Positions 793 to 59,359 of a stretch of 64,000 bases of DNA are shown piece by piece. Location of the stretch: positions 974-64,973 of the IMG/VR virus record IMGVR_UViG_2786546475_000019; one strand, given 5' to 3'. Both the position numbers and the translations under genes were made by a program. The notes beneath the pieces were generated by a model. That model saw only the letters and a program-made list of their open reading frames with translations. It was not told where the DNA came from and did no database searches. This stretch comes from a virus. Each line of letters opens with the position of its first letter. The first letter of the stretch is position 1.

Positions 793-793
793 G

Positions 794-2217: not shown

Positions 2218-2232
2218 AAACCCTTAGCCGCG

Positions 2233-2263: not shown

Positions 2264-2273
2264 TGCCCTTGGA

Positions 2274-2333: not shown

Positions 2334-2430
2334 AACCCGGTAGGGGTTTATCACAAGTCGTTGCACCCAGGAACAATACCGGGGTCCGTCGCCCTTAACG
2401 CGACGACACAAGCATGATATTTTGTGCCAC

Positions 2431-2577
2431 GGTCCCCGGACCTAGCTACTCGGACCTAGCTACTCGGACCATGCACCCTGATCCACGGACCATGATCCAC
2501 GGACCACGGACCAAGCTACTTAGGCCAAAACACAATGATACTGGGGTAGGGGTTCAGAATCCGCCGGTCCGTGGACC
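2431..2577 (+). repeat. GGACC/GGTCC array (7 GGACC, 2 GGTCC) with tandem 14-mers GGACCTAGCTACTC x2 and GATCCACGGACCA(T/C) x2, ending in the palindrome GGTCCGTGGACC
   Basis: tandem units at 2438/2452 and 2480/2494; palindrome at 2566-2577. Confidence 0.85.
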
Positions 2578-2612
2578 AAAGAACTTCATTAACGTTTCCT
2601 CTGAAAATTATT

Positions 2613-2676
2613 TTCTGAATTTTTTCAGAATTAGGGGCAATCCGTCCTGCCCTCATTCGTATCTATAGGGAAGTCC
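2613..2676 (+). promoter_or_regulatory. promoter-like module A1: palindrome TTCTGAA-N4-TTCAGAA, then TTTTCA-N6-GGGGCAATCC-N11-CATTCGTATCTATAGGGAAGTCC
   Basis: one of three copies with identical geometry (others at 59266-59322 + and 58653-58708 -); 12 nt before ATG 2688. Confidence 0.6.
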
Positions 2677-2687
2677 ACCTACTGATA

Positions 2688-3257
2688 ATGATAATGACAA
2701 GAAAACTTTATCCAGCATTACCTGATCACCCTGAGTACCGTTGCAAGTCCACGGCTCAAAACAAACATTGTACGTTTCTATCATGTGACGGACTTCGCAA
2801 ACTGAATCTGTACGACGATCCAAGGCAATCTGATAAATGTCCCAAGCACGCCGGACGACCACCAAGTAAACAAACAGCTTTGGCAAAGTACATGGACACC
2901 CATCCTCATGAGGTGGGTTATCATTTGCCGGACCAAGCACCAAAGGTGCATTCCCAATCCCGAAGTGTCGCCGAAGAACTTCACATTCTCCGCACACTTC
3001 TTCAAAACACCCTGAACCAATGCAATACGTCGCTCGACTTACTCGCTAACACTGAGCGAATGACAGTCTTAAGTGATAAGATTGCTAACTTGATAAAAAC
3101 TGACGTATTCCTCGAAGAAAAAACAAAGAACTCCTTGACGCGGGACCAAATCATGGCCGTGCTCTCGGAGATACAACAAGTGATAACTCGGCATTGTTCG
3201 CCGGAGCAGGTCGCACTGATCCGTCAAGACTTCCAAGAACTAACCATTCCTGACTAA
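2688..3257 (+). CDS. hypothetical protein, first gene of the rightward structural operon
   Basis: 189-aa ORF directly downstream of module A1. Confidence 0.6.
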   Translation: MIMTRKLYPALPDHPEYRCKSTAQNKHCTFLSCDGLRKLNLYDDPRQSDKCPKHAGRPPSKQTALAKYMDTHPHEVGYHLPDQAPKVHSQSRSVAEELHILRTLLQNTLNQCNTSLDLLANTERMTVLSDKIANLIKTDVFLEEKTKNSLTRDQIMAVLSEIQQVITRHCSPEQVALIRQDFQELTIPD

Positions 3258-3268
3258 CCTCAGTTACT

Positions 3269-3574
3269 ATGCCAAGTCACATAAATCCAAATCGCATCAA
3301 ATCAGAGACGATGTTCGCCGGAGCACAGAACATCAACATTATCACTACGGAATCCAGCGTCACGCTCCGTGCTCCAGATGATACAACTCAATCGCTCACG
3401 CCAACCGGAACCCATCCAAATAAAGTAATCTCAGCAACCCTCGATCAAGCAGGTTTCTACACCGTAGACGGTCACATTGGAAAAGTCCTTGTGCTTGTTT
3501 CCACTTATGATGAAACCTACGGAGCTGCTTACAGAGGAACGGGACTCACCCCAGTAGTAGGCCAAGACGCCTAA
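3269..3574 (+). CDS. hypothetical protein
   Basis: 101-aa ORF, co-oriented and tightly spaced. Confidence 0.5.
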   Translation: MPSHINPNRIKSETMFAGAQNINIITTESSVTLRAPDDTTQSLTPTGTHPNKVISATLDQAGFYTVDGHIGKVLVLVSTYDETYGAAYRGTGLTPVVGQDA

Positions 3575-3585
3575 CCAAACAAACC

Positions 3586-5217
3586 ATGTCATACGCAGAC
3601 GAAACAACAGCAAAAGCAGCCGTAGCAAATGCCATTGGCAACGCAACAAGCGTCGATCCAGTGAGCAATACGGAACATGCTGACGTTCTTGATAATTTGA
3701 TCGAGAACATCTTCGCCGCTGATGGTATCACTGTGTATTTCGCCGAACCTCTGTCGGGACTTGGCGATGACGGCGACGTCACAATCTACGAAAACAAAAT
3801 CTACTCGAAAGCTGCCGGAACATGGTCCGAGGAACTTGAATTAACAAGCTGGACTTTCAATACTGCTGATCCTCCCACGTCCACGTCTCACACTTATGCA
3901 ATCTCGACAACCGGCCAATTATACGTAAACGTCGCCGGAACATGGACCTTGCAGCAGTTATCATTAGGCAAATACAAAGGTGCTCACTCAACCACCACAA
4001 AGTATTACGCCAATGATATTATCCTCTACTCAGGGGAATTGCAGTACGCTAACAGCACGCACAATCCTAAGACATATGACGCCGCAGACTGGACTTCGCT
4101 ACCTACTGCGTCATCAACCCACGTACTCCACGATGATATCTCAACACTTCCTTCCTCCCCGGACGGTTACACGCTTGAACTATATGACGGGATCGGCGAG
4201 GGGATGCTCTTTGAGCGGGTATCAAGTGCGTGGGTTTACCGAACACAGACAACAACTCCAGTTGTTGACCTAACCTCTGGCAACGCTTCAACGATTGCAG
4301 CATATTTGTCCGCTGGTCAAATATATCGGTACAATTTAACGACAGGCGAACCATACTACGTTGATAACGCCGGAGCACGGACCTCGCTTCCTCCAATCCA
4401 AACCGCCGTAACAGCCCTACCGTCAATTGTAGACGGTCCCGATCTATTGGTTTGGACCACGGACCCTGACGGGCATCGAGCGTACTTTAAAGGAGCTTCC
4501 GCGTACCAGAAGCTCCCACTTGTCCCAAGTATCCAAGAGTCCGATCAATCACTTTCGGAGAATCGGGAACTAGCGTACAACGCCCGAACACTATCATTCG
4601 ACGGTGACGGCACATTCCGCTTCGGAGACTTAAGCGACAACACCGACGGATATTATGCGGCCTTCAACTCCGGTGCGTTACAGTGGGCCAATGCTACACC
4701 GGAAACGAACCTCACGTCCATCACCCCTACCATTGTCAATTCGCAAAACCTAGCTCTGGTAAACGACGGCACTAGCAACAGTTTCACGTTGAAATACGCA
4801 GGAAGCCAAGATCAAGACTTTACGTTTCCAGCAGATCTTCCAGCTTTAGGTAATATTCTGGAAGTCACGGGCCTTGCAACAAGTTCCATTGTAGTAGGCT
4901 GGCGTAAGCCCGTAAAAGACTGGTTCACGCTAACCTCAGCCACCCCAACTGTGACAGTTGACGGCAATGATAGCAAACGCTTTAAACTTGACCCTGGGCA
5001 CACTCCAATTACAATTGCTTTCACTAATTGTGAGCAACATGATTTTGTTCTCCTCAAGATACGAGGTCACGCTACAAACTCAGTGTCAATGCCTGCCGGA
5101 GCAGACGGTGACGTTTTCTCTCTTAGTACGGATGATACAAAAGCAACTTTAGTCACAGCTATCATTGATGGTTCCGCCATCCATCTTGGCGTAATGAGGG
5201 ACGTATCATGGGCTTAG
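3586..5217 (+). CDS. putative tail fibre / receptor-binding protein
   Basis: 543 aa, Thr/Ser/Gly/Tyr-rich repetitive beta-type composition; adjacent to a beta-helix protein. Confidence 0.45.
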   Translation: MSYADETTAKAAVANAIGNATSVDPVSNTEHADVLDNLIENIFAADGITVYFAEPLSGLGDDGDVTIYENKIYSKAAGTWSEELELTSWTFNTADPPTSTSHTYAISTTGQLYVNVAGTWTLQQLSLGKYKGAHSTTTKYYANDIILYSGELQYANSTHNPKTYDAADWTSLPTASSTHVLHDDISTLPSSPDGYTLELYDGIGEGMLFERVSSAWVYRTQTTTPVVDLTSGNASTIAAYLSAGQIYRYNLTTGEPYYVDNAGARTSLPPIQTAVTALPSIVDGPDLLVWTTDPDGHRAYFKGASAYQKLPLVPSIQESDQSLSENRELAYNARTLSFDGDGTFRFGDLSDNTDGYYAAFNSGALQWANATPETNLTSITPTIVNSQNLALVNDGTSNSFTLKYAGSQDQDFTFPADLPALGNILEVTGLATSSIVVGWRKPVKDWFTLTSATPTVTVDGNDSKRFKLDPGHTPITIAFTNCEQHDFVLLKIRGHATNSVSMPAGADGDVFSLSTDDTKATLVTAIIDGSAIHLGVMRDVSWA

Positions 5218-7058
5218 GATTAGGATTAAACATGGGCTTGTTTCCTTTACCATCGGTTAAAGCAACATTGGACAACCGTCCTTTGTTCACGTCGCTTGCA
5301 TTTTTGCAATGGCGTCGCGATATAGTAACTGCAAAAGAACGCCCCACGTATTGGATCCCTCAAACAGAGTATTACGTCAGTGAATCGACCGGTAACGACG
5401 CTAACGCTGGAACAGAAGTCGCCCCTTGGCAAACACTTGAAAAAGCTCAACAAGTTCTTGACGCTTTGTCTGATGAATCGTATACCGTTATACGGCTCAA
5501 ACGTGGTGATACTTGGGAAGAAGAAGGAACTGTTTTAGCGGTAGACGGAAACTCGTGCTTACTGCGACTGACAAAGACGTTCAGCGGGATCAGTTCTTAC
5601 GGGTCCGGTGACCTGCCGTTTATCAATCAATTTGCTACCAAATACACGTCGGGTTGGACTGTTCACAGTGGGAACGTCTACGTCCGATCGGAAGCCAATG
5701 ATATTGTTAGCGTTCGGCTAACAACTGATCGCCTTGTACCTTTTTACGACGCCACAGACGCTACAGATTGTGCTACCGATATTGCTGACACAAACGGCTC
5801 ATATTTTTATGATGCGACTGGCAACAACTTATATGTCAACCTTGGCGGTACTGATCCGAATACAGTAACGATTGAAGCTGCAATTTCTAATGATGACACA
5901 GTTGAAGCGGTAGCACATGGTTGTTTCATCGAGAACATTCGGCTCGACGGCACGTTAAAAAGAACAACAAGGGACGAGCAGGCGGGTATCCGTTTAAATA
6001 TCAATGGCAGTGAAGTCGCAAGAATCGAGAACTGTGAAGCGTATTATGGTTCGTCTCACCTGATACACCAGAACGGTTTAACCGGGACTGGCGGCATCGG
6101 TATTATCAAGAATTGCAAAGCTGGCTATTCGCTCTGGAATACTGGCGGAAACACGATTTTCAATTCATACACATTAGGCGGCGATCAAGAGACTTATGTC
6201 CAAGACTGCGAGGTTCCTTATGGAACATTACCAGGTCACGAGTGGACGTCGACTAACTCAGCACACGATGCTTTAGATGGTTCAGCGTTTTATTGTCATG
6301 CTGGTGGCGGGGCAAACACTGGGTTTATCCTCGTCGATGGGATGAAGTGCGACCATGATAACGCTTGGGGTCCGCAAGAAGGGTCTTACAATGGTAGTGC
6401 TCCAGCAGCAGCAACAATCGAAGACGCCAAGGTAGTTGTCTTCGGAGAGGTCGTAGATAACAGCCGACTTGGGTTGCGATGTTTCCGATTATCACCTGCG
6501 AACGGAGTTGGAATTTGCAACACGTACACAGGAGGCTACGGCACCGATAGAAATTACCGAGCACTTTCAGCAACAAACCAAAGCGGCTTTATGTTTAATT
6601 GTCGCTTCGACGTTTCTCTCCCTGCTGGACTATTTAACGCTCACGGATTCTGGAACGGTTCTGGAACGTCAAATGTAAGCTGGTTCTTTAACCGTTTTAT
6701 CCAACGAGCTTCTCACGGATCGCATGATCTTGCGTTTAATTATGACTCCGTTTCTACATGGCCTGACAGCACGCTTTACAACAACGTTATCGCTCGCGTT
6801 GGAACCTATGATAACTCGGTCGCTATGTATAACGGCACTCCCGATTCCAACAACAATGCTCTGTATCAATTCAAAGGGGCGAACGCAGGAGCAAACTCAA
6901 TTGACATTACAACCGAGGCCGAAGCGGTTCAAGACACAGCAAATGTTGATACTTACGGTACATGGGAAGCTGCAAATACAGCAATCGGAGTTGTGCCTGA
7001 GTACGACAGGCTTCTGAACCCGCGAACAGCAACAACAAGCATTGGAGATTTGGCGTAA
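5208..7058 (+). CDS. right-handed beta-helix (pectate-lyase fold) tailspike / depolymerase-like protein
   Basis: N-terminal STGNDANAGTEVAPWQTLEKA motif typical of parallel beta-helix proteins; Asn/Gly-rich repeats; ATG overlaps the upstream stop. Confidence 0.55.
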   Translation: MGLGLGLNMGLFPLPSVKATLDNRPLFTSLAFLQWRRDIVTAKERPTYWIPQTEYYVSESTGNDANAGTEVAPWQTLEKAQQVLDALSDESYTVIRLKRGDTWEEEGTVLAVDGNSCLLRLTKTFSGISSYGSGDLPFINQFATKYTSGWTVHSGNVYVRSEANDIVSVRLTTDRLVPFYDATDATDCATDIADTNGSYFYDATGNNLYVNLGGTDPNTVTIEAAISNDDTVEAVAHGCFIENIRLDGTLKRTTRDEQAGIRLNINGSEVARIENCEAYYGSSHLIHQNGLTGTGGIGIIKNCKAGYSLWNTGGNTIFNSYTLGGDQETYVQDCEVPYGTLPGHEWTSTNSAHDALDGSAFYCHAGGGANTGFILVDGMKCDHDNAWGPQEGSYNGSAPAAATIEDAKVVVFGEVVDNSRLGLRCFRLSPANGVGICNTYTGGYGTDRNYRALSATNQSGFMFNCRFDVSLPAGLFNAHGFWNGSGTSNVSWFFNRFIQRASHGSHDLAFNYDSVSTWPDSTLYNNVIARVGTYDNSVAMYNGTPDSNNNALYQFKGANAGANSIDITTEAEAVQDTANVDTYGTWEAANTAIGVVPEYDRLLNPRTATTSIGDLA

Positions 7059-7309
7059 TGCTACTAAACATAACTGATAAACACGGTGTCACTGTGGGTG
7101 TTGTTGAAGCAGACACCTTGGAGAAAGCTTCCAAGCTCGCAAGAGATCACGTCACCAAGTTGGTAGATCCTCCTGCTCCTGACGGCACTCCAGGCATGAA
7201 GTACCCTAAGACTGAAAGCTCTGATTTGTTCATCGCATTCTTCCGAGAAGAAACTGATAAGCGACCAATATTGAAATTCAAATTCAAGCCACTTGATGTG
7301 ATCAAGTAG
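7058..7309 (+). CDS. hypothetical protein
   Basis: 83-aa ORF; TAATG overlap with the upstream gene. Confidence 0.5.
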   Translation: MLLNITDKHGVTVGVVEADTLEKASKLARDHVTKLVDPPAPDGTPGMKYPKTESSDLFIAFFREETDKRPILKFKFKPLDVIK

Positions 7310-7320
7310 TTAATAGACCA

Positions 7321-8034
7321 ATGAAAGAAATTTTAGATTCACTATCACTAATCGGGCTGTTTGTGCTATCCATCGTAACGATCATGCATTTCGTACAGCT
7401 TGACAATCGAGGCGAGTGGATGCGACAAGTGCAAGAAAATTTTGACTACGGACAGCGATGCAGCTTGCACGATTTGAAGCAAACCATCAAAGCAAACAAT
7501 TTAATAGAGCCTGATTTTGCACCGCGTCCTCCAGTCCCTGAACCGTTTTGGCGAGAAACTACAACGTCTGCAAAATCAGACACCTGCCCACATTGTAATG
7601 TACCAATGAGATTTTTTGATTGTGTTGGAACCGTTCGGGCGTGGCGTATTATCATCGCACATTCTCTGATCAGTGCGATGTATCTGGGTATTGCGTTTTT
7701 CCGTTTTCTTCCGGCTGGAATGGAAGCACGAACGCAAACGGAACGAGTTGTTTGGTATTCGCTCGCGTTTATCTTCCCGTTTTGCTGGGCTGCGGGATAC
7801 GGGACGACGATACTCGCCGGCTGGTTTCCTGCTTTGGCGTACTTTTTGAAAGAATCAGCGTGCTACGTTGACGCTGCATTTTGTGTTACTTTTCTATGGT
7901 CGACGCGAAATCAAAATTTGGTTTCGGTTACTGTTGATAGTTTTCGAGACGAAATTGAAGACATTGTCAACAACGAAGACTCTGACTTATCTCACGGCGA
8001 CCGCATTCAGCAGATTCGAGACTCTTTGCAATGA
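7321..8034 (+). CDS. multi-pass membrane protein
   Basis: several hydrophobic segments; CPHCN motif. Confidence 0.5.
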   Translation: MKEILDSLSLIGLFVLSIVTIMHFVQLDNRGEWMRQVQENFDYGQRCSLHDLKQTIKANNLIEPDFAPRPPVPEPFWRETTTSAKSDTCPHCNVPMRFFDCVGTVRAWRIIIAHSLISAMYLGIAFFRFLPAGMEARTQTERVVWYSLAFIFPFCWAAGYGTTILAGWFPALAYFLKESACYVDAAFCVTFLWSTRNQNLVSVTVDSFRDEIEDIVNNEDSDLSHGDRIQQIRDSLQ

Positions 8035-8408
8035 ATATCTGGCTCTTGATGCAAGAATCGACAGCCCCTGGAATGCCTGCATGGGTGGGGTTCGTCACTG
8101 GTACGGGAGGTGGTCTAGTGATGGCAATTTTCGGACTGATTGCGTTGTGGAAGCGAATGATCTTCAAGGAAACACAGTACGAAAAACGGCTCGAAACGAA
8201 AGACAAAGAAGTCAATCAAATCGGGCGAGAGTTCGTTGAACTATCGATAAAGATGTTGGAACGGGACGAAAAAAACCGGGAAAACGATAAGGCAATCCGC
8301 GATGGTTTCGACAGACTAATTGAGCACGTTAAAACCGACTCACTTAAAATGGAGAATTGGCGGAAAGAGGTGGATCGAATATTGGCACAGCTGGTACCCC
8401 GTAAGTAA
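8031..8408 (+). CDS. membrane-anchored coiled-coil protein
   Basis: N-terminal TM (FVTGTGGGLVMAIFGLIALW) followed by a charged helical region; ATGA overlap. Confidence 0.5.
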   Translation: MNIWLLMQESTAPGMPAWVGFVTGTGGGLVMAIFGLIALWKRMIFKETQYEKRLETKDKEVNQIGREFVELSIKMLERDEKNRENDKAIRDGFDRLIEHVKTDSLKMENWRKEVDRILAQLVPRK

Positions 8409-33403: not shown

Positions 33404-33612
33404 GCCAAAGCCAACTTGAAGCTTACGCCAGACAACGTAAGTTTAGGCCCAAGATGGAAAATGTTCAAATTTGTGAACAGTGCGACCACTTAATACGTGA
33501 TCGCTACTGTTCCAAATTTGGCAAGTGTCCTGACGCTCAAAAAGATTTCTTTAAAGCCCTTGAACGAAGTAAATGTCCTTTAGAGAAATTTCCGTCGCAG
33601 CTCAGCGAATAG
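33400..33612 (+). CDS. small Cys-rich protein, last gene of the rightward arm
   Basis: 70 aa, CEQCDH...C...C; 3' end overlaps the convergent gene by 33 nt. Confidence 0.45.
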   Translation: MSQSQLEAYARQRKFRPKMENVQICEQCDHLIRDRYCSKFGKCPDAQKDFFKALERSKCPLEKFPSQLSE

Positions 33613-33996
33613 AATTCTAACTTGCTTAGGAGTTAACTCTAACAAACGCCCGATTTCCGAATACGTATAGTATTGAAGTCGTAAACTTACAGCCCATCGC
33701 TCCTCGACAGTTAGCCTATCTAGGTCAAACTGATCGAGGAATTCTTCTGCACTTCTTGATAATTCTTCAATATCGCCTAACGCTTCGGTATCATTGTTTG
33801 TTTGCATTTTCTTTCGACGACGGTAAGCGTCAATACCTCTCGACCGTAGTAAGGTTCTTAAGTGTGAGATGAATTTCTTTTCCTCAACTAGCTCATGATA
33901 ATTCTCCCACGCTTGTAAAAATTCCAAAGATAGCGAGCAGTCAAATTTAGTTTCAAACTCTCGCAACAAGTAAACATAATCGTCGATCCTTCGCAT
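33580..33996 (-). CDS. sigma-70 region-4-like HTH protein (minimal ECF/LuxR-type)
   Basis: LTVEERWAVSLRLQYYTYSEIGRLLELTPKQVRILFAELRRKF matches the region 4.2 pattern. Confidence 0.5.
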   Translation of the reverse strand: MRRIDDYVYLLREFETKFDCSLSLEFLQAWENYHELVEEKKFISHLRTLLRSRGIDAYRRRKKMQTNNDTEALGDIEELSRSAEEFLDQFDLDRLTVEERWAVSLRLQYYTYSEIGRLLELTPKQVRILFAELRRKFL

Positions 33997-37585: not shown

Positions 37586-38236
37586 TTAAACCATATTCAA
37601 AGTAATTGGAGGTTTGTCGCTTTTTAAAAGTTTAGCTAGCTTTTCTAACGCTCGCTTTTCAAGTTGACGAACTCTTTCTCGCGAGATATTAAGAGTTTCC
37701 CCAATAGTCTTAAGAGGAATCCCTTGGGCTCGTAGCCTCAAAACTAAAGCATCTCGACTATTTAACTCAAGAAAAGCTTTTTCTAGAGCAATAAGCTCCT
37801 CTTGCCATTCTATCAAATCCCTATCAAGACATTCTAAAGGTGTAACAGGGTTATTAAATAGCCCGTGTAAGGTTTGAAACATTGGAGCACGAGCTATAGC
37901 AGCTTTAGCTCTGTCAAGATGAGCTGGATTTGGAGATACTTTAATTAACTCCACCTTGGTTTTCATGTAAGTTATCATTCGTTGTTTCACCCACGGAGTG
38001 GCGTAAGTTGAAAACTGATAACCTTTACTAGGGTCAAATTTTTTGACCGCCTGACATAACCCACTCATTCCTTCTTGAATTAAATCGTCTAAATCAAGCT
38101 TAGAATTTTTCTTGGCAAAAGACACCGCTATCTTGATAACCAATCCTTGATTATCTAACACTAACCGATTGAGTGCTTCATCAGCTTCCTTTCTAGCAGA
38201 ATGATATTTTTGTAATAACTCGTCATTAGTATCCAC
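37586..38236 (-). CDS. sigma-70 family RNA polymerase sigma factor (group-3-like)
   Basis: region 2 DDLIQEGMSGLCQAVKKFDPSKGYQFSTYATPWVKQRM; region 4.2 TIGETLNISRERVRQLEKRALEKL. Confidence 0.85.
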   Translation of the reverse strand: MDTNDELLQKYHSARKEADEALNRLVLDNQGLVIKIAVSFAKKNSKLDLDDLIQEGMSGLCQAVKKFDPSKGYQFSTYATPWVKQRMITYMKTKVELIKVSPNPAHLDRAKAAIARAPMFQTLHGLFNNPVTPLECLDRDLIEWQEELIALEKAFLELNSRDALVLRLRAQGIPLKTIGETLNISRERVRQLEKRALEKLAKLLKSDKPPITLNMV

Positions 38237-43911: not shown

Positions 43912-44387
43912 TCCGGCTCAGTAGTTCCAACGTATCCCATACCTTTGCCAAGAATCTTGTCTTGATAATAATACCATCGGTATGAGAAGATACAGTCTTC
44001 GAAATCTCCGGCCAAGCCTTTATAATATCCAGGCATAGCCAAGTTTGGAGGAGTAAGAGGGCCACGTCGTATGTAACACGGAGATTGATAAAGATACCCA
44101 ACCCGGTTCCATACTTCATGTAAAGCTAACCCTCTCTTATCCCGCTCCTTCAACAACGCTATCATATGCTTCAAAGTCCATTGATAATTTGAATCAGTGG
44201 AACGAACCCATTGAGTTGACGGGTGATTTGCGAAGCATGGTTTACACATTCCTTGACGCCAAAGTCCAACTTCGTCATGTGCCGTTGATAACATTTGGGC
44301 ACACTCAATCGGCATTTTTGTTAAATGGTCCGTGGCCATGTAGCTAGCTGCAAGGACCGGGTCCATATCAAGGAAGAAAACATTCAC
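43881..44387 (-). CDS. conserved phage protein of unknown function
   Basis: N-terminal FFLDMDPVLAASYMATDHLTKMPIECAQMLSTAH recalls a widespread phage/virus family I cannot name with confidence. Confidence 0.5.
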   Translation of the reverse strand: MNVFFLDMDPVLAASYMATDHLTKMPIECAQMLSTAHDEVGLWRQGMCKPCFANHPSTQWVRSTDSNYQWTLKHMIALLKERDKRGLALHEVWNRVGYLYQSPCYIRRGPLTPPNLAMPGYYKGLAGDFEDCIFSYRWYYYQDKILGKGMGYVGTTEPEWLLHLKGKL

Positions 44388-44770
44388 GCCCCAAGTCCAA
44401 GCGATTTGATGGAAGCCCTTTTGAGTGCTGTCAAGGTAACAACACGTCCAAGTAGCTTGGAAAGTGTTTCTTCGAAGTTATCAAGTTGCTCCGATAATTT
44501 GTATTCGAAGCCGTTCAAAAGTATCACTTCTTCCAAGTTCTCAGAAACCCAAGAATTTAAGTCTTGGTCTTTCACAAGATACTTACCGTCTTGAATCGTT
44601 AACTTGCCATTGATAGTTGGGCCTTTCAATTCGTCTCGCCAAATTTTCACGTTTTCAGGAGCGGTTATGTTAATTGAAGCAGCTCCTGATCCTGCATCAA
44701 AGATTGTTACCCGAACGTCGTTCCCAATTGTAAATGATTGCGACGCCCAGCGTTTAAGAGTTAACGCCAT
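44384..44770 (-). CDS. hypothetical protein
   Basis: 128-aa ORF. Confidence 0.5.
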   Translation of the reverse strand: MALTLKRWASQSFTIGNDVRVTIFDAGSGAASINITAPENVKIWRDELKGPTINGKLTIQDGKYLVKDQDLNSWVSENLEEVILLNGFEYKLSEQLDNFEETLSKLLGRVVTLTALKRASIKSLGLGA

Positions 44771-48850: not shown

Positions 48851-48910
48851 TGTTAAACTTTCTGTAAAGTGAGTATAGTCCGTAAATAAACACTAATAAG
48901 TAAAGCATCC

Positions 48911-48944
48911 TGCTCCCCTTTGCTCCCCTTTGCTCCCCTTTGCT
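48911..48944. repeat. 10-bp tandem repeat TGCTCCCCTT x3.4 (AAGGGGAGCA on the - strand)
   Basis: exact units at 48911, 48921 and 48931 in a 101-nt intergenic gap. Confidence 0.9.
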
Positions 48945-48951
48945 TCATTCG

Positions 48952-49341: not shown

Positions 49342-49508
49342 TTGTCTCTCCGTACAGGTAGATGGTAATATTGGCCGTGTTCTTCAAACAAACATCTGAT
49401 AAAAATGTTCACTTTTGACATTTCTGTCCACGGCCCTTTAGAGGCCATCCAAATTACAAAAAGTCCGGCCCCCAATATTAAAGCCATTGATAAAGCTTTG
49501 TGTTTCAT
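49338..49508 (-). CDS. small membrane protein (56 aa)
   Basis: start moved to ATG 49508, behind the conserved GAAAGGAATATCATG of cassette B1; hydrophobic LSMALILGAGLFVIWMA. Confidence 0.45.
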   Translation of the reverse strand: MKHKALSMALILGAGLFVIWMASKGPWTEMSKVNIFIRCLFEEHGQYYHLPVRRDK

Positions 49509-49527
49509 GATATTCCTTTCTAAACAA

Positions 49528-49578
49528 GTAAACAACGGTCCACGCTCCATGATACTTGGAGCGTGGTACGTTGGCTAC
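49528..49578 (-). promoter_or_regulatory. intergenic stem-loop cassette B1
   Basis: - strand GTAGCCAACGTACC-ACGCTCCA-AGTATCA-TGGAGCGT-GGACCGTTGTTTAC; starts 9 nt after the upstream stop. Confidence 0.7.
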
Positions 49579-49586
49579 TCTTACCG

Positions 49587-50147
49587 TTAGGTAGACTCAA
49601 ACGTTACGATATCCGGGTCTTGTAGCCCTCCGCCTAAGTCGGAAGCTTTCAACTCAAATTCGTAATTAACTCCACGGAACCCCGTGAAGTTATCACCGAC
49701 CCAGCCGTCGAAAGTGAACTCAACCCGCACCGTGACAGTAGGAGCGGGAATAGCTACTTCCTCAATGAATACGTCGGTCCAGCCTTGACCGCCAGAACCT
49801 CCATTAAGCGGGTTAGTGTTGTTTCCCCAATTCATAGGAAATTTTATAGTTTCCGTCACGCTCACGGGACCATTTGGGCCTTCTACCACGACAGTGTGGT
49901 CAACCATTTGATAAGTTCTCACGTGAACTGCAAGCCACTCCAAACGATTGTCAACCCACCAAGTTGCAGTTAAGTTAACTTTTGTAACGTCCCCGGCTGA
50001 GACTTCCGTGACTCCCATTGAGGCGGAGCTGTAGTAGTCTCCGGAAGTGCCGTGCACCGGGTTGTTGCCGCCTCCGCCTACTTGACCGTAAGCAGTTGTT
50101 GCTACGAGCAACAGAATAGTAAACAACACAAGTGATAAAATACGCAT
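49587..50147 (-). CDS. secreted protein
   Basis: signal-like MRILSLVLFTILLLVATTAYGQ; AAGGAG RBS. Confidence 0.55.
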   Translation of the reverse strand: MRILSLVLFTILLLVATTAYGQVGGGGNNPVHGTSGDYYSSASMGVTEVSAGDVTKVNLTATWWVDNRLEWLAVHVRTYQMVDHTVVVEGPNGPVSVTETIKFPMNWGNNTNPLNGGSGGQGWTDVFIEEVAIPAPTVTVRVEFTFDGWVGDNFTGFRGVNYEFELKASDLGGGLQDPDIVTFEST

Positions 50148-50176
50148 AGTCTCTCCTTAAAAGAGTAAAGATTTGT

Positions 50177-50188
50177 GGTCCGTGGACC
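50177..50188. promoter_or_regulatory. palindrome GGTCCGTGGACC (identical 12-mer at 2566-2577)
   Basis: lies in the 42-nt gap between two - strand genes. Confidence 0.5.
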
Positions 50189-50189
50189 A

Positions 50190-50981
50190 TCATTTAGTAG
50201 GACGACACAATGCTCGTGTCTTCCAGTAGTTGAAGCTACGTTCCAACTCTTTGACGAACGCTTCCGCATCCATCTGAGTATCAGTGCCGCCGTCGCTGCC
50301 GAAGTGGTTGTGCAGCAACGTTTCAGGTTTCATCGGAGCATTCAGGTCTTCTAAGTCCACCCCAGCGTTGACTGAGATGATATTCCACCGCCCGTAGGCT
50401 TGTTCTCCGCTCTCATAGAGCACGTCTCGATGATAAAGGACGACTTCGACGTGGCAGGCGGCGGCCTTATTTACGCCGTCCAAGTATTCATGCCGACGTG
50501 GCGACTCGCCGTCACGTCGTGGCTTATACTCCACGATCAAAGTATCATTGTTCCGAAGCTTACGAATAGGGCAATAAACCCCGTTCGCGTCAATCGGAAC
50601 GATGATAACTCCGTCTCTATAGCCGGGACGCTGCTCGTGAAATCGGGCTTGTACCTGTTCAACGAGCACTTCGTCTGAGAACTTCCAGTGGGAGAACTCA
50701 CTATTGGCTGTCTGCCGACTAACGAAGTCGTGGACCGCTACGTCTGGAGCTGGGTTGCTCCAGTTCTGTTGCGTAACCTGCAACACGGTGGGTTCTCCAT
50801 TAGGGTGGATCGCCGCTTTGTCCCTTGGCTCGTAGTCATAAATGAAGGTATCTCCGTCCGAGGATTGAAGGGCATTACGCCCCGATCCATCTTCTTCTGC
50901 GTCGCCGTAGGGGACGTAGCCGTTTTTAAGAAGTATGATAAATTCGTCGTTACTTAACATTTGTTGGTTGTCAGTTTTCAT
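50190..50981 (-). CDS. hypothetical protein
   Basis: start moved to ATG 50981 behind AACAGGAGAGCGAG, the same RBS block as at 51730. Confidence 0.5.
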   Translation of the reverse strand: MKTDNQQMLSNDEFIILLKNGYVPYGDAEEDGSGRNALQSSDGDTFIYDYEPRDKAAIHPNGEPTVLQVTQQNWSNPAPDVAVHDFVSRQTANSEFSHWKFSDEVLVEQVQARFHEQRPGYRDGVIIVPIDANGVYCPIRKLRNNDTLIVEYKPRRDGESPRRHEYLDGVNKAAACHVEVVLYHRDVLYESGEQAYGRWNIISVNAGVDLEDLNAPMKPETLLHNHFGSDGGTDTQMDAEAFVKELERSFNYWKTRALCRPTK

Positions 50982-50998
50982 CTCGCTCTCCTGTTTAT

Positions 50999-51283
50999 TT
51001 AACAAGCTTTCCATTCAGCAATAAGTTTAGCAGCTTCGGGTGAGACTTTCACCCACTGTTTCACTGAAATGTCCTCATGGGTTTCAACAGCTGCCGTGAT
51101 ACGTGTGTTGGTCTTCGGACCATTAGCCGCTAAGCCAAAGAGTCCACCGCACTCAGAACTCCAGTAAAGGACCATTCGAGCGTTTCGCAATTTGATAGGC
51201 TTTCCAGCTTCGGGGTCTTTGTCCGCCATACCGATTATAACGGCTCGTCCGTTTTCCCCGCAACAAACTAGATACATCGACAT
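50999..51283 (-). CDS. hypothetical protein
   Basis: 94-aa ORF. Confidence 0.5.
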   Translation of the reverse strand: MSMYLVCCGENGRAVIIGMADKDPEAGKPIKLRNARMVLYWSSECGGLFGLAANGPKTNTRITAAVETHEDISVKQWVKVSPEAAKLIAEWKAC

Positions 51284-51284
51284 T

Positions 51285-51629
51285 TCAGTCTCCTCTTATC
51301 AATTGATAAATTTCTTTGTAAGTATGTACTGGCATATTATACTTGTCCGCTATATCCTGCCAGTTCTCTTCCCACCAGCTAAAAGAATGACACTGACCCC
51401 CAACTTTCAACACTCCAAAGTCTTGGTTGACTTCTACTTTGCGGCCGTGTAAAATTCCGAGTGTTATCAGTTTGCCGTAGCCGTAGCCGTAGCCGTAGCC
51501 GTAGCCGTCGCCGTCGCCGTAGCCGTCGCCGTAGCCGTAGCCGTAGCCGTAGCCGTCGCCGTAGCCGTAGCCGGTCCCGTAGCCGGTCCCGTAGCCGGTC
51601 CCGTAGCCGTCGCCGTGGTTACTTAACAT
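51285..51629 (-). CDS. protein with an N-terminal Gly-Tyr(-Asp/Thr) repeat region
   Basis: GDGYGTGYGTGYGTGYGYGDGYGYGYGYGDGYGDGDGYGYGYGYGYG followed by a ~60-aa non-repetitive domain. Confidence 0.55.
   Translation of the reverse strand: MLSNHGDGYGTGYGTGYGTGYGYGDGYGYGYGYGDGYGDGDGYGYGYGYGYGKLITLGILHGRKVEVNQDFGVLKVGGQCHSFSWWEENWQDIADKYNMPVHTYKEIYQLIRGD
51474..51616. repeat. hexanucleotide microsatellite (GCCGTA/GCCGTC/GCCGGTCCCGTA variants) encoding the GY repeats
   Basis: about 143 nt of near-perfect 6-nt periodicity. Confidence 0.9.
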
Positions 51630-51640
51630 TTGATAGTTCC

Positions 51641-51730
51641 TTATAAATGATCAACTTTGGTCTTTGCTTCACGCGGACCGATGTACGGTTCCAACGTAAA
51701 TAAGTCATTGATATTTTCACATAGTTTCAT
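51641..51730 (-). CDS. tiny coupled ORF (29 aa)
   Basis: ATGA overlap with the TraR/DksA stop; preceded by AACAGGAGAGCAAG, nearly identical to the RBS block of 50190..50981. Confidence 0.35.
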   Translation of the reverse strand: MKLCENINDLFTLEPYIGPREAKTKVDHL

Positions 51731-51933
51731 CTTGCTCTCCTGTTTGCTCGCTTAGCGAGTCGTTGAGTTTCAGGATCGTCCGGAAGTATCACTAGCGATC
51801 CTGCGGTCTTATGGCCGTACACCATGTACCCTGTAGCACGCTCCGTGGTGCTACAGGTTGCACACGTCATTGTGTGCGGAAGTACCTCTAAGCGTTCACT
51901 ATCAATTTGTGTTTTGCAGTTTATGCAGTTCAC
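51727..51933 (-). CDS. TraR/DksA-family C4 zinc-finger protein
   Basis: CINCKTQIDSERLEVLPHTMTCATC. Confidence 0.55.
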   Translation of the reverse strand: MNCINCKTQIDSERLEVLPHTMTCATCSTTERATGYMVYGHKTAGSLVILPDDPETQRLAKRANRRAR

Positions 51934-52178
51934 TCTTGCTCCTTCCAGAACTTGATATTTTTGACAACCCCTTCGGCGAGGTCAGCGATAGAATCTATCA
52001 CTTCTCGCTCACAACCGGGAATGGTGTAGAAGTAATTAAACTCCCCACCCTCGGTGAAGGTAACAAGTTGCGTGAAGCGACCCTTGTTTATCTTGGACAA
52101 GTGCCAGTAGACTTCGCGAACGCCTTCGTTAAGAAAAATGTAACAGGGAGTTTCGCCAATGACTTTAGTTTCGTACAT
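51930..52178 (-). CDS. hypothetical protein
   Basis: start moved to ATG 52178 behind GAAAGGATTATCATG (same RBS block as the B cassettes). Confidence 0.45.
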   Translation of the reverse strand: MYETKVIGETPCYIFLNEGVREVYWHLSKINKGRFTQLVTFTEGGEFNYFYTIPGCEREVIDSIADLAEGVVKNIKFWKEQE

Positions 52179-52188
52179 GATAATCCTT

Positions 52189-52518
52189 TCAGATTGAGTA
52201 AGTGCGAGATTGAAGTGCTTGTTTCGGTTCACGGCCCTTGTACTTAGTTCCAGGCTGCTCGAACCACGTTCCACGTGAGATGTGAATATCCAAGTCAAGA
52301 TATTCATACTTCGGGACGTTATAATAGTCTGCTAAGTCGTAAACGTCCAGATTATCAAGATCTGGAATTGGTCGCAACGTAATATGCGACAGTACGTAAG
52401 CCGCCACATTACGTTGCTTACGCTTGAGCGTTGGGTTAGCCGCTTGGACCGTGGCCCACAGCCGCTCAAAAGACTCTAGAGTTGGACACAACTCAATGAT
52501 AGATACTCTCTTAGACAT
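52189..52518 (-). CDS. hypothetical protein
   Basis: start moved to ATG 52518 (ATGTCTAA overlap with the upstream stop). Confidence 0.45.
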   Translation of the reverse strand: MSKRVSIIELCPTLESFERLWATVQAANPTLKRKQRNVAAYVLSHITLRPIPDLDNLDVYDLADYYNVPKYEYLDLDIHISRGTWFEQPGTKYKGREPKQALQSRTYSI

Positions 52519-53062
52519 TGGCCACGGCTCCCATCTTAAGAACCTTGGCACACATTGCCAACAATTTGGCGTGGTGTCGGGGAGCTTCAACATGGTTCTC
52601 GAACCATGAATCATCCGCCCCACATGGTAGCTTGACTCCCCCGGCTCGGAAGTATTGATAATTGTGCCGTGCGACACGGGCATTGTCCCGTGCATTGAGC
52701 AAGCACTCCCGTCTCGTGGCCCGTGGCGGACGAAGATGGTCGAATTTCATCAAAAGAACGCTATCAATGGAAGATTTCCCGCATCCTGCGTCTCGCAGCG
52801 TGCGAATATCATCCGCTGCGGCTTTGCGAGCGGTTCGAACCCACTCAATATGGGCCAGAGCTTCCCGATAAAGGTCGATCTGTTCGCTGATCCAGTAGCC
52901 AAGGGTGGCCTCAAAATCATGGAGAGTTACTTGATAGTCCAGAGTTCCGACCCAACGTAGCGGGGTGCCTGGAATGTAAGCTTTGTAGTCGTGGCCGGAA
53001 GCCTCGACCTCGACAGGCAAATCGTTGACGTAGAACATTCCAAGAGGTTGCATAGCTTTCAT
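52511..53062 (-). CDS. hypothetical protein
   Basis: start moved to ATG 53062 behind cassette B2. Confidence 0.5.
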   Translation of the reverse strand: MKAMQPLGMFYVNDLPVEVEASGHDYKAYIPGTPLRWVGTLDYQVTLHDFEATLGYWISEQIDLYREALAHIEWVRTARKAAADDIRTLRDAGCGKSSIDSVLLMKFDHLRPPRATRRECLLNARDNARVARHNYQYFRAGGVKLPCGADDSWFENHVEAPRHHAKLLAMCAKVLKMGAVANV

Positions 53063-53087
53063 GATAATCCTTTCAAGTGAGAAAAAA

Positions 53088-53134
53088 GTAAACAACGGTC
53101 CCTGCACCTCACGAGTGCATGGTACGTTGGCTAC
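53088..53134 (-). promoter_or_regulatory. intergenic stem-loop cassette B2
   Basis: - strand GTAGCCAACGTACC-ATGCAC-TCGTGAG-GTGCAG-GGACCGTTGTTTAC, then TTTTTTCTCACTTGAAAGGATTATCATG. Confidence 0.7.
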
Positions 53135-53144
53135 TGGCTTGCTA

Positions 53145-53570
53145 CTAAACAATTGCCCTCTGATTCAGTTCAGGAACAACAGTGTGAGCTATCAATATCC
53201 CAAGCTTGACGCCCCAGTTGACGAGTCTTTGATAAGCTTCGTCCAGCTCCGCCAACGTCTTATATTTAAGGGTCAGCCCGCTGATTAGCAAAGGCTCACC
53301 GTCGCGAGTCGCTCGCAACACGCATTTCCCGTCCCCGGTTGTGATAGAAAAGCTGCATTTATCAGCTAGTCGTAGCTGCGGTATGCCAACCATGTTCAAT
53401 TTTCGTCGAACGTATTGGCGAGCCGCCTGGGAGTCCGTAGCATACGTGACCTTGAGGTGCTCAATAATTTGTTGAGTGTCGGACGTGCCATACAGCTCCT
53501 GAAGTCGCTGATCGGTCTCAAACATCAGAAGTTGCTCGATGAAATTCCAAGTCGTGTGATTGTTAATCAT
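53145..53570 (-). CDS. hypothetical protein
   Basis: 141-aa ORF behind cassette B3. Confidence 0.5.
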   Translation of the reverse strand: MINNHTTWNFIEQLLMFETDQRLQELYGTSDTQQIIEHLKVTYATDSQAARQYVRRKLNMVGIPQLRLADKCSFSITTGDGKCVLRATRDGEPLLISGLTLKYKTLAELDEAYQRLVNWGVKLGILIAHTVVPELNQRAIV

Positions 53571-53591
53571 GATAATCCTTTCAAGAAATTA

Positions 53592-53638
53592 GTAAACAAC
53601 GGTCCATGCACCTCATGGGTGCACGGTACGTCAGCTAC
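53592..53638 (-). promoter_or_regulatory. intergenic stem-loop cassette B3
   Basis: - strand GTAGCTGACGTACC-GTGCACC-CATGA-GGTGCAT-GGACCGTTGTTTAC. Confidence 0.7.
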
Positions 53639-53645
53639 CAACTAC

Positions 53646-54014
53646 TTATACTTCAGTCCGCCACTTAAGCCAGAATTCCAACATAGCGTTAAAGTTGTGG
53701 TAAGTCCCGTCGTCTTCGACGTTATGATAATCTTCAAGGTCCAACGGGGCGAACTCCTCAAGTGTCTCACGCAACGGTCTGACGGTGTGTGAACCATTCG
53801 TTGAGTAAGAATATGAAACTTCCGTTAACGCCTCACATCGCACAATAAAGGTTTCGAAAGTTTTCTCAAGCCGAGATTGGAGCCTGCGATCTTTGATTTC
53901 TCGAACTATCAGTACCGGGGTTCCTGGTCCTTTGACCAATAACCCTTTCTTGATTTCGATTCGGTTCTCTTTGACTTCTCGACAGATTTTGAACAACATA
54001 GACTTAGCTTTCAT
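53646..54014 (-). CDS. hypothetical protein
   Basis: 122-aa ORF behind cassette B4. Confidence 0.5.
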   Translation of the reverse strand: MKAKSMLFKICREVKENRIEIKKGLLVKGPGTPVLIVREIKDRRLQSRLEKTFETFIVRCEALTEVSYSYSTNGSHTVRPLRETLEEFAPLDLEDYHNVEDDGTYHNFNAMLEFWLKWRTEV

Positions 54015-54038
54015 GATAATCCTTTCAAGTGAGAAACA

Positions 54039-54085
54039 GTAAACAACGGTCCGGGCTACCCGTGGGCAGCACGGTACGTTGGCTA
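54039..54085 (-). promoter_or_regulatory. intergenic stem-loop cassette B4
   Basis: - strand TAGCCAACGTACC-GTGCTGCCCACGGGTAGCCC-GGACCGTTGTTTAC. Confidence 0.7.
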
Positions 54086-54093
54086 TTGATAGA

Positions 54094-54113
54094 CCTAGGC
54101 CCGAAGGCCCAGG
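54094..54113 (-). promoter_or_regulatory. stable hairpin with a UUCG tetraloop in - sense (CCUGGGCC-UUCG-GGCCUAGG)
   Basis: 8-bp stem; the single non-Watson-Crick pair is G-U in - sense but A-C in + sense. Confidence 0.55.
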
Positions 54114-54168
54114 ATTAAATCCAGATTGTCAAAGATCAAAATTATCATTTGTGTCCCGCCACTGGCGG

Positions 54169-54284
54169 AAATGATATGATAGCTTACAGACCTACGGTCA
54201 ATCTATTCTATACTTAATATCGGCAATTGGGAAGTAAGAAAATAGATTATTTTTGAAAATAATCAAAACTTTATCATATCATTT
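54169..54284. promoter_or_regulatory. operator pair AAATGATATGATA (54169-54181) / TATCATATCATTT (54272-54284) bracketing the palindrome GATTATTTT-TG-AAAATAATC (54245-54264)
   Basis: exact reverse-complement 13-mers; the identical pair occurs at 59227/59347. Confidence 0.7.
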
Positions 54285-54285
54285 T

Positions 54286-54627
54286 TTACACTGTTTCCTT
54301 CTCAATGATAATCCCATTGATTTCGAATTGGTTCGTGACCATATGCCAATGCATATCATTATACAGGAACCGATAGCAAGTTCTCCGATACCTGAACTCG
54401 TGACTAGGCCCATGGGCCGTGTACTCGGGTGTAGGCCATTTATCAATGTACCCTGTTAGAGACACGGACCTTTCATCTGGAAAAAAGAATTCAGGCTCTT
54501 GGACCTTGATCAATTCATCGTTGGACAAGTTACGGAGCCAAAGCCTATCTTCATCAAGATGATAATTTGCCTGCCACTCAAACCAAGCTTCAAACTCAGT
54601 CATGAAACAGTATGGGTTTCTGTTCAT
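54286..54627 (-). CDS. hypothetical protein
   Basis: start moved to ATG 54627 (GGGAG RBS, 1 nt after the methylase stop). Confidence 0.5.
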   Translation of the reverse strand: MNRNPYCFMTEFEAWFEWQANYHLDEDRLWLRNLSNDELIKVQEPEFFFPDERSVSLTGYIDKWPTPEYTAHGPSHEFRYRRTCYRFLYNDMHWHMVTNQFEINGIIIEKETV

Positions 54628-58586: not shown

Positions 58587-58603
58587 TAACAAACCTCATT
58601 AAC

Positions 58604-58618
58604 AAATTGATATCATTT
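58604..58618. promoter_or_regulatory. near-palindromic operator-like site AAATTGATATCATTT in the primase leader
   Basis: related to the AAATGATA / TATCATTT half-sites. Confidence 0.45.
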
Positions 58619-58652
58619 TCGATAACAGATTCGAGAAAGCCCGAAACAACCA

Positions 58653-58708
58653 GACTTCACCCTATAGCTACGAGTGGCGGGATATCGGATTGCCCCACAA
58701 AATGAAAA
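58653..58708 (-). promoter_or_regulatory. promoter-like module A3
   Basis: - strand TTTTCA-TTTTGT-GGGGCAATCC-GATATCCCGCC-ACTCGTAGCTATAGGGTGAAGTC, about 70 nt upstream of ATG 58586. Confidence 0.6.
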
Positions 58709-58793
58709 TAAATCGAGTTAATGGAAATTGATACGAAACTTTAATGACGTTTCCAGTGCAGCGTTATCATTATTCTCTCACGTACGCGAAGCC

Positions 58794-58932
58794 ATTAACG
58801 TTTTTGATACTCAAACCTTTAATTTAAGCTTCTACTTCTTATGGGTACGAGGTGAAAGTAAAATATAGTAGTAGTGTAAATATTATAAGGATTTCAGCCG
58901 CTCAGGCGAGCTTCTGATAAGAAAACGTTAAT
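58794..58932. repeat. 11-bp inverted repeat ATTAACGTTTT / AAAACGTTAAT flanking a very AT-rich stretch
   Basis: arms at 58794-58804 and 58922-58932; related TTTTACGTTAAAT at 58941. Confidence 0.7.
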
Positions 58933-59017
58933 GAGCCAAATTTTACGTTAAATTGGTATGTTTCGACGGGAATTGATACCGTCTCACTGCTCTCCTCCCG
59001 AACCTTGCATCTTGGCT

Positions 59018-59058
59018 CACGCTACACGTATCACGCTACACGTATCACGCTACACGTA
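59018..59058 (+). repeat. tandem 14-mer CACGCTACACGTAT x2.9
   Basis: units at 59018, 59032 and 59046; followed by ACGT/CGCGTG-rich repeats up to 59225. Confidence 0.9.
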
Positions 59059-59142
59059 CGCGTAGCACGTGGGTACGTGCCAGGGCCAAAGACCTTGAGT
59101 TCTCTTTTAAGTCTCGGAACTGACGTGTAAATTAGTAAGCGG

Positions 59143-59169
59143 TTATCATTTTGCGTGAGCAAATGATAA
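59143..59169. promoter_or_regulatory. inverted repeat TTATCATTT-N9-AAATGATAA
   Basis: perfect 9-bp arms. Confidence 0.6.
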
Positions 59170-59226
59170 TTCTCGCGTGCTCCCGCGTGTCCCGCACGTG
59201 CGACTATTTAAATACGCGACGTGCGT

Positions 59227-59359
59227 AAATGATATGATACATGGTTTTCAAAATACTTGAAAATATTTTCAAAATACGGGGCAATCCTGCCCGGTTTTAT
59301 TCGTAGCTATAGGGGGAAAGTAGACTGTTTTACTTTCCAAAACGACTATCATATCATTT
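59227..59359. promoter_or_regulatory. operator pair AAATGATATGATA (59227-59239) / TATCATATCATTT (59347-59359) bracketing module A2
   Basis: exact 13-mers identical to the 54169/54272 pair. Confidence 0.7.
59257..59322 (+). promoter_or_regulatory. promoter-like module A2: palindrome TTGAAAATATTTTCAA, then TTTTCA-N6-GGGGCAATCC-N11-TATTCGTAGCTATAGGGGGAAAGT
   Basis: same 29-nt spacing from GGGG to CTATAGGG as A1 and A3. Confidence 0.6.

Follow-up and report, generated by a model that had tools for sequence, protein, structure and literature searches.

Four intercistronic hairpin cassettes in an uncultured marine phage: a lineage-specific family and candidate RNase III-type processing sites

The stretch of DNA analysed here, hereafter the window, comprises 64,000 nucleotides (positions 974 to 64,973) of the IMG/VR virus record IMGVR_UViG_2786546475_000019 and carries the genes of a tailed phage, with a gpA-type terminase, a P22-type coat protein and a tape measure protein on the + strand and about 50 replication and small genes on the − strand. 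The window holds four same-strand (−) intergenic cassettes, B1 to B4, which follow one another in the order B4 to B1 when the − strand is read. In each of them exact flanks enclose a diverged, still-paired apex, and after a further 6-12 nt comes a near-identical Shine-Dalgarno (SD)/start box. The cassettes are best filed as a genuine, selected and lineage-specific family, a sequence-unrelated relative of the intercistronic processing or regulatory hairpins known from phages. Three roles had been offered for them in an earlier reading made from the sequence without database searches (the sequence-only reading), namely an RNase III-type processing site, an attenuating terminator and a translational operator. 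The first of these fits best and is favoured here, in view of a helix of some 21 bp, an upper stem that keeps to 9-10 positions and a placement relative to the genes like that in phage T7. Our interpretation, which we hold tentatively and at a probability of about 45%, is that B1-B4 are intercistronic processing/stability hairpins.

The cassettes and their two incomplete relatives lie at the following positions.

54038..54087, − strand: B4 hairpin, folded as AAUAG.CAACG[UA]CCG.GCUGCC-CACG-GGUAGC.CGG[AC]CGUUG.UUACU; 68.1 bits with the covariance model
54012..54037, − strand: B4 spacer GTTTCTCACTT and SD/start box GAAAGGATTATCATG; the ATG at 54014-54012 opens an open reading frame (ORF) of 122 amino acids (aa)
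53591..53639, − strand: B3 hairpin, with a 9-bp upper stem; 73.1 bits with the covariance model
53568..53590, − strand: B3 spacer AATTTCTT and SD/start box; the ATG at 53570-53568 opens a 141-aa ORFan
53087..53135, − strand: B2 hairpin, with an apex nearly the same as that of B3; 74.7 bits with the covariance model
53060..53086, − strand: B2 spacer TTTTTCTCACTT and SD/start box; the ATG at 53062-53060 opens a 183-aa ORF
49527..49579, − strand: B1 hairpin, with a perfect 10-bp upper stem and a 7-nt loop; 69.3 bits with the covariance model
49506..49526, − strand: B1 spacer TGTTTA and SD/start box GAAAGGAATATCATG; the ATG at 49508-49506 opens a 56-aa ORF
52176..52190, − strand: fifth SD/start box GAAAGGATTATCATG, without a hairpin, overlapping the upstream stop codon
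50148..50189, − strand: possible degenerate relative (low confidence), a short GGUC-CACG-GACC hairpin with TTTACT, a U-run and an SD sequence

Reading of the − strand and a covariance model both confirmed that these elements are a repeat family with conserved flanks, present in the four copies originally claimed. The 15-mer GGACCGTTGTTTACT, which forms the 3′ flank, is exact in all four copies and has no other match in the window at up to three mismatches. B1, B2 and B4 carry the 5′ flank TAGCCAACGTACC unchanged, and B3 has the variant TAGCTGACGTACC. A covariance model built from B1-B4 and applied, unfiltered, to the entire window matches these four only, at 68-75 bits, the next score being 12 bits. 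The start box GAAAGGATTATCATG has four exact copies in the window and a fifth with one mismatch (B1); four of the five sit behind a hairpin, where the consensus is GAAAGGA(T/A)TATCATG. The variable spacers that separate the hairpin (…TTTACT) from GAAAGG form a deletion series of TTTTTCTCACTT and measure 6-12 nt, not the 11-18 nt given in the sequence-only reading. That reading also had every copy begin 8-10 nt past the upstream stop, which stands, at 7-10 nt, for B1 (8 nt past the stop of a 186-aa ORF whose N-terminus resembles a signal peptide), B2 (10 nt past that of the 141-aa ORF) and B3 (7 nt past that of the 122-aa ORF), and not for B4, which has no stop directly ahead and lies in the leader of the first gene past a 271-nt regulatory intergenic region. 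B2 and B4 share 83 nt of homology, including an exact 32-nt repeat, TTTCTCACTTGAAAGGATTATCATGAAAGCTA, that extends into the first codons (…ATGAAAGCTA). The element at 50148-50189 (−) precedes the gene for the 186-aa protein and was missed by the covariance model; it may be a decayed fifth cassette.

The predicted fold is the same in each copy. In RNAfold a 5-bp outer stem (AGUAG/UUACU) is followed by a C.U mismatch, a 5-bp CAACG/CGUUG stem and an invariant 2x2 internal loop (UA/AC), from which CC/GG leads into an upper stem of 9-10 positions closed by an apical loop of 4-7 nt. The whole is an interrupted helix of about 20-21 bp, or roughly two turns, in the form AGUAG.CAACG[UA]CC, upper stem, GG[AC]CGUUG.UUACU, in which essentially all conserved flank bases are helical and the length of the upper stem stays constant despite its change in sequence. 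The pairing of the flanks around a conserved 2x2 internal loop, as first described, is thus borne out by the folds, and the helix is longer than had been claimed, since AGUAG pairs with UUACU. The flank variant of B3 (CUGACG) gives two G-U pairs in the lower stem. The internal loops lie at about 49538-49540 (B1), 53098-53100 (B2), 53602-53604 (B3) and 54049-54051 (B4). Predicted stabilities range from -15 to -29 kcal/mol. When the variable segment only was shuffled (2000 shuffles per copy), the observed energy was reached in 0%, 4%, 0.05% and 1.4% of cases for B1 to B4, respectively. The earlier suggestion of a putative recognition site in the lower stem and internal loop, and not in the apical loop, is supported.

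In the alignment of the four copies, 93% of pair cells are standard; sliding of the 3′ partners lowers this to 31-54%. Of the 19 pairs, ten are invariant, four show a one-sided change and three have changed on both sides; the covariation score was matched by 21 of 500 column shuffles. The upper stems had been said to differ completely and yet stay paired. The pairing is indeed kept, whereas the complete difference is not, as the pairs G18-C37 and C19-G36 are invariant and the apices of B2 and B3 are almost alike, and the apices of B1-B4 are diverged homologues. As to the strand, the variable non-Watson-Crick pairs, read in − sense, are G-U and not A-C by 5:0 in the inner helix, in keeping with what had been noticed before; with the two outermost pairs counted the ratio is 6:1 (the exception being an A.C at pair 2-53 of B4; binomial P ~0.03-0.06), so that the support for the mRNA strand from this source is weak. 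The folding energies of B1-B4 do not decide between the strands. Taken with the genes here, all of which are on the − strand, the wobbles of G-U type in that sense and the proportion of standard pairs uphold the proposal of a structure in the − strand transcript.

Strain variation indicates purifying selection on the cassettes. Their region was found in identical gene order in 12 contigs from several samples (the phage was assembled from Tara Oceans stations with runs ERR594309 and ERR594388 and sample SAMEA2621191), and the strain variants, 1-1.4% divergent, have 67 positions with single-nucleotide polymorphisms (SNPs) between 49000 and 55000, all of them coding. The ~670 intergenic nt hold 0 SNPs, where ~7.5 are expected, and the 298 nt of the cassettes hold 0, where ~3.3 are expected. 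A search of this microdiversity for compensatory changes found the elements identical in all variants. Contig ends near B4 and B2 in L083 (end 14644), L084 (end 6647) and L178 (both ends) were considered as RNA ends and rejected; these breaks are assembly artefacts, because they coincide with the exact 32-nt repeat of B2 and B4.

The closest analogues in architecture are the early RNase III sites of phage T7 (R0.3, R0.5, R1, R1.1 and R1.3), which we folded for comparison. In each of them an internal loop separates a lower stem from an upper one, which measures 9-10 bp, or 13 bp in the case of R1.3. Cleavage there falls at coordinates 890, 1468, 3138, 5887 and 6448, reportedly given by Dunn and Studier in 1983, and these coincide exactly with the 3′ side of the internal loops in our folds. 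In R1.1 the internal loop is of 4/5 nt and the cut lies within it (PMC6121014). In common with T7, the cassettes of the window are paralogous intercistronic hairpins of the mRNA strand, with a conserved core, a variable and compensated apex and G-U pairs. The hairpins begin 0-20 nt past the upstream stop in T7 and 7-10 nt past it in B1-B3, and the next ATG lies 26-36 nt from the 3′ side of the loop at four of five T7 sites and 29-35 nt from it in B1-B4. A copy in the leader behind promoters is found in both, as R0.3 in T7 and here as B4 behind a promoter-like box. The two sets differ in that the most conserved part is the lower stem in B1-B4 and the base of the upper stem with the loop in T7, and in that a start box with an identical SD sequence is attached in B1-B4, unlike T7; cleavage in B1-B4 is predicted.

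RNase III substrates have an ideal length of ~22 bp, and cellular ones are of ~<20 bp, figures with which the ~21 bp of B1-B4 agree; internal loops in them lead to single-strand cuts that leave stabilising 3′ hairpins (PMC3867540). The features expected of an RNase III site, namely a helix of about two turns, a loop below an upper stem of 9-10 positions and an intercistronic position on the sense strand, are all found in B1-B4. We propose that B1-B4 would act as hairpins in a polycistronic early mRNA of the phage, made from the − strand, and that a double-strand-specific endoribonuclease, most probably the RNase III of the host, would cut at or next to the conserved internal loop. Such a cut would leave a protective 3′ hairpin on the upstream cistron, and every ORFan gene downstream would be headed by a uniform leader of 29-35 nt that carries an identical SD/start box, by which the expression of unrelated small genes would be insulated and equalised. 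Transcription as a single unit, the enzyme and the consequences for stability and translation are parts of this model that we infer. Sequestration of the SD sequence by the spacer was rejected as part of the cassette's function, as such pairing lacks conservation: B2 shows it, B4 shows it weakly and the other copies do not.

Several points weigh against this interpretation. RNase III cleavage of B1-B4 is itself something that we infer. The internal loop is small and symmetric (2x2), whereas those of T7 are larger and asymmetric (4/5 or similar). A covariance model search of T7 positions 400-8200 gave nothing (best score 11.4 bits), and the T7 consensus core CUCAAGGUC...GUGGCCUUUAUGAUU is unrelated to the flanks of B1-B4, so there is no sequence homology between the two. 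UUU follows within 2 nt of the end of every helix, so some termination is possible. The identity of the flanks, together with the 32-nt repeat of B2 and B4 that reaches into the ORFs, could reflect recent duplication or gene conversion and not recognition. The covariation is modest and based on four paralogues. The folding energies show no overall preference for the − strand, two copies folding better in + sense, where the energy model gives the internal loop a higher stability. Finally, the cassettes have no database homologues and are lineage-specific.

This last point calls for the searches behind it. Rfam at gathering thresholds gave no match in the whole window, and at E<5 the region 49400-54400 yielded a chance match only, to mir-370 (18.6 bits against a threshold of 70); known RNA families and ribozymes were rejected accordingly. 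A blastn search against INPHARED found nothing. Scans for the exact flanks returned single chance matches without hairpins in IMG/VR (76), in JGI metagenomes (4) and in GTDB genomes (6), the last of these scans covering 185,579 species genomes. The covariance model had no match in 80 related phage loci, with a primase of 37-43% identity, and a de novo search for repeats in these loci found operator-like palindromes (GATTnnnnAATC-type), duplicated gene starts and occasional duplicated SD boxes, and no hairpin family. Homologous elements with compensatory changes elsewhere, whose absence the sequence-only reading had named as telling against its proposal, were therefore found neither in the databases nor in the related loci. 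This says little on function, because there is no close relative, the best primase homologue being 43% identical. In the related loci L119, L149, L163, L087, L120 and others, short palindromes (TGATTCTACAATCA, GATTTAGTAAATC and GAGTTAGTAACTC) occur in 3-8 copies per 22 kb; they have the look of operators or promoters and bear no relation to the hairpin family.

Among the alternatives, the one that survives best, although we consider it unlikely, is that B1-B4 are attenuating intrinsic terminators, in which the hairpin and a U-run would stop RNA polymerase part of the time and create a gradient of polarity, possibly with relief by an antiterminator. B1-B4 share with rho-independent terminators a hairpin just past a stop codon and some U residues, the UUU past each helix included, and differ from them in that the stem is long, interrupted and partly AU-rich and most of the U-tract is paired. 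A consensus scan for terminators flags two of the four, B1 and B3, though by their upper stem only, and the T-tail scores under a short-hairpin definition (3.0-3.6) are similar to those of the canonical terminators of the genome. Against this, d'Aubenton-Carafa-type scores are -2 to -51, at or below 0 for all eight definitions of the hairpin, and the conserved 'U-rich' GUUGUUUACU, in which the sequence-only reading saw a possible terminator tail, proved to be the base-paired 3′ strand of the lower helix. The long interrupted stems contrast with the terminator stems in other parts of the genome, which are perfect over 9-10 bp. A canonical terminator at ~2236-2259 (+) has a perfect 10-bp stem followed by UAUUUUUAU and scores +10.7, and a second candidate in the genome scores -21, so the score is not decisive. 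No promoter lies past any of the elements, so that four terminators in a row would deprive some 40 genes further downstream, those for replication among them, of transcription, and termination leaves the invariant internal loop and the fixed length of the upper stem unexplained. The canonical terminator belongs to a longer arrangement at ~2236-2345 (+), in which GGACCGGTCC, AAT and TTGGACCGGTC are followed by TATTTTTAT and then by three tandem 20-mers of the form ATATCAA(C/A)TAGCTGCACGCA.

A translational operator is a less probable explanation still. On this account an RNA-binding protein would recognise the lower stem and loop, the GGA of the start box, or both, and so control translation or stability for this small group of genes. 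The fact that the flanks and the 15-nt start box are invariant in sequence, while the apex drifts, is consistent with it, and the phage itself encodes a candidate trans-acting factor:

44384-44770, − strand: CsrA-domain protein of 128 aa, with an N-terminal CsrA/Rsm domain (Pfam 38.6 bits, cut-off 27)

The nearest solved structure to this protein is RsmE 2jpp (E=1e-3), the arginine of VHREE is kept, and the C-terminal extension of ~80 aa has no match. Each cassette holds two GGA motifs, GGACC and AAGGAU, 25-31 nt apart, a spacing within the range that a CsrA dimer can bridge. The first GGA, however, is taken up in stem pairing, and none of the apical loops, where CsrA prefers its site, contains a GGA. 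As GGA occurs in nearly every SD sequence of the genome the match is also unspecific, and the fifth start box stands without a hairpin. The role of translational operator, as proposed from the sequence, has thus gained a candidate factor and is weakened by GGA motifs that are generic or paired; the link of the operator to the CsrA-domain protein is putative. A wider form of the idea, in which this protein would co-switch unrelated ORFan early genes as a post-transcriptional regulon private to the phage and independent of host RNase III, we regard as very unlikely.

The same low probability attaches to a function at the level of DNA, in which the cassettes would be PeSL-like patches of homology for the shuffling of ORFans, with a hairpin that is either incidental or a side effect of palindrome repair. 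The flanked genes are indeed unrelated, one of them being a true ORFan among 5.8 billion proteins (the 141-aa ORF has no homologue in that set), and the 83-nt homology of B2 and B4, with its exact 32 nt reaching into the ORFs, also fits. The arrangement resembles the composite conserved regulatory motifs that flank ORFans in T4-type phages (PMC2839356, PMC4122927). However, the same gene order in 12 of 12 contigs gives no sign of shuffling, homologous exchange would homogenise the apex too, and the G-U pairs persist, where repair would have made perfect palindromes. A role in recombination would also be compatible with a function of the RNA. The origin of the cassettes by tandem gene duplication was rejected, as the proteins behind them are without significant mutual similarity in a comparison of the proteins.

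Least probable is a passive 3′ stabiliser or insulator of REP type, which would block 3′-5′ exonucleases or uncouple cistrons without cleavage: the hairpins are stable and lie right past stop codons, and REP elements begin with GTAG, as do three of the four hairpins, whereas such a role needs no invariant loop, fixed length of the upper stem or invariant flanks, there is no RAYT/Y1 transposase in the window, and no such repeats occur in the 185,579 species genomes. REP/BIME elements as such were rejected because the matches are single ones at chance level (6 from GTDB species genomes, 4 from JGI metagenomes) and a Y1 transposase is lacking in the window.

Other known systems resemble the cassettes in part. 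The SAS/ESAS elements of Cluster K mycobacteriophages likewise place an SD box immediately before the start codon in some of the genes, all copies have one orientation, as in B1-B4, and function is unproven in both. SAS/ESAS have a GGGATAGGAGCCC box 3-8 bp before the starts and 17-bp inverted repeats with a spacer of 4-13 bp (PMC3203893, PMC12699233), and the ESAS spacer is unstructured, with dozens of copies across many phages (PMC3203893, PMC12699233). In B1-B4 the box is GAAAGGATTATC, the arms are of 13-15 nt and lie 19-23 nt apart, the spacer is a compensated stem, and there are four copies in a single phage lineage, of unrelated sequence. Membership of SAS/ESAS was therefore rejected on box, arm length and spacing, the architecture being analogous only. 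The PeSL of T4-type phages is similar as a composite intergenic motif with a stem-loop that flanks small ORFans in a plastic early region, and it holds a sigma-70-type promoter, e.g. TTTACW-N17-TAYWAT (PMC2839356, PMC4122927). A sigma-70 or PeSL promoter within the cassette was rejected, since TTTACT and TATCAT are 14, 16, 19 and 20 nt apart and the hexamer that resembles a -10 box shares bases with the ATG. A promoter for a phage RNA polymerase was rejected too: the 870-aa ORF encodes an AEP primase/D5-type helicase, and the ORFs yielded no RNA polymerase. Integron attC sites have core sites RYYYAAC/GTTRRRY and extrahelical bases and are associated with an IntI recombinase. The likeness to them lies in imperfect palindromes past each ORF, outer AAC...GTT boxes, an unpaired central spacer and a variable top; an attC identity was rejected, as AGCCAAC and GTTGTTT misfit the cores, there are no bulged bases, the element is of ~50 nt and the strand bias is to the coding strand. 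No Phage_integrase or other tyrosine recombinase was found among the 94 scanned ORFs of the window.

The cassettes stand in front of small early genes. The − strand genes mostly overlap or abut, and of the short gaps between them the B elements alone are strongly structured. Among the scanned ORFs of the window there is no RNA polymerase, RNase III, integrase or transposase. The primase/helicase is identical to a protein of a Tara Oceans contig of 72 kb, which binning had assigned to an 'Acidobacteria' metagenome-assembled genome. B4 closes the 271-nt regulatory region, which holds the promoter-like box and a UUCG hairpin, and the phage encodes its own sigma factor:

54094..54113, − strand: UUCG-loop hairpin CCUGGGCC-UUCG-GGCCUAGG, 6 nt upstream of the B4 helix, with one G-U pair in − sense
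54121..54138, − strand: promoter-like box TGATCTTTGACAATCTGG, directly ahead of the UUCG hairpin and B4, with a further copy at 710-727 (+)
37586-38236, − strand: sigma factor that comprises only regions 2 and 4

A second, weak match to sigma region 4 lies at 33580-33996 (−). The TGATCTTTGACAATYTGG copies at 710-727 (+) and 54121-54138 (−) contain TTGACA, and a strong hairpin follows each; these boxes may be early promoters, with no canonical -10 at 16-18 nt. Inverted AATGATATGATA pairs bracket regulatory regions of ~90-110 nt at 54170-54283, upstream of B4, and at 59228-59358, upstream of the ParB gene, and both bracketed regions also hold TTTTCAAAA-type palindromes; repeats of the ATGATA type are also present upstream of the primase in the relative L085. 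In the divergent primase/ParB region (58593-59359), three copies of the iteron-like CACGCTACACGTAT lie beside a palindromic ACGTG-rich sequence at ~59040-59100, a site that may be a replication origin or a partition site. Within the region of the cassettes, the ORF at 51285-51629 (−) has a long Gly-Tyr-Gly/Asp repeat, in which strains vary by a 54-nt in-frame indel (114 vs 96 aa), and an intergenic gap at 48851-48951 (−) holds AGCAAAGGGG three times in tandem. Several unrelated small proteins encoded between 48900 and 54700 (−) contain, or terminate in, an aromatic-Trp-Lys-like motif (…EFWLKW…, …AEWKAC, …KFWKEQE, …NYWKTR…), which may be coincidence.

The wider impact of these cassettes is limited, as they are four members of one lineage and repeated intergenic regulatory hairpins are familiar in phage genomes. 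B1-B4 offer a concrete place to look for RNA ends in the Tara metatranscriptomes. The cassette is a compact natural 'insulator', in which a hairpin is combined with a leader of fixed form and with an identical ribosome site, and as such it could be reused. If B1-B4 are of RNase III type, the strategy of T7, in which a long early transcript is cut into uniformly led and 3′-protected messages, would not be confined to T7-like phages; an uncultured marine phage, siphovirus-like and reliant on the RNA polymerase of its host, would have come to the same strategy through unrelated sequence.

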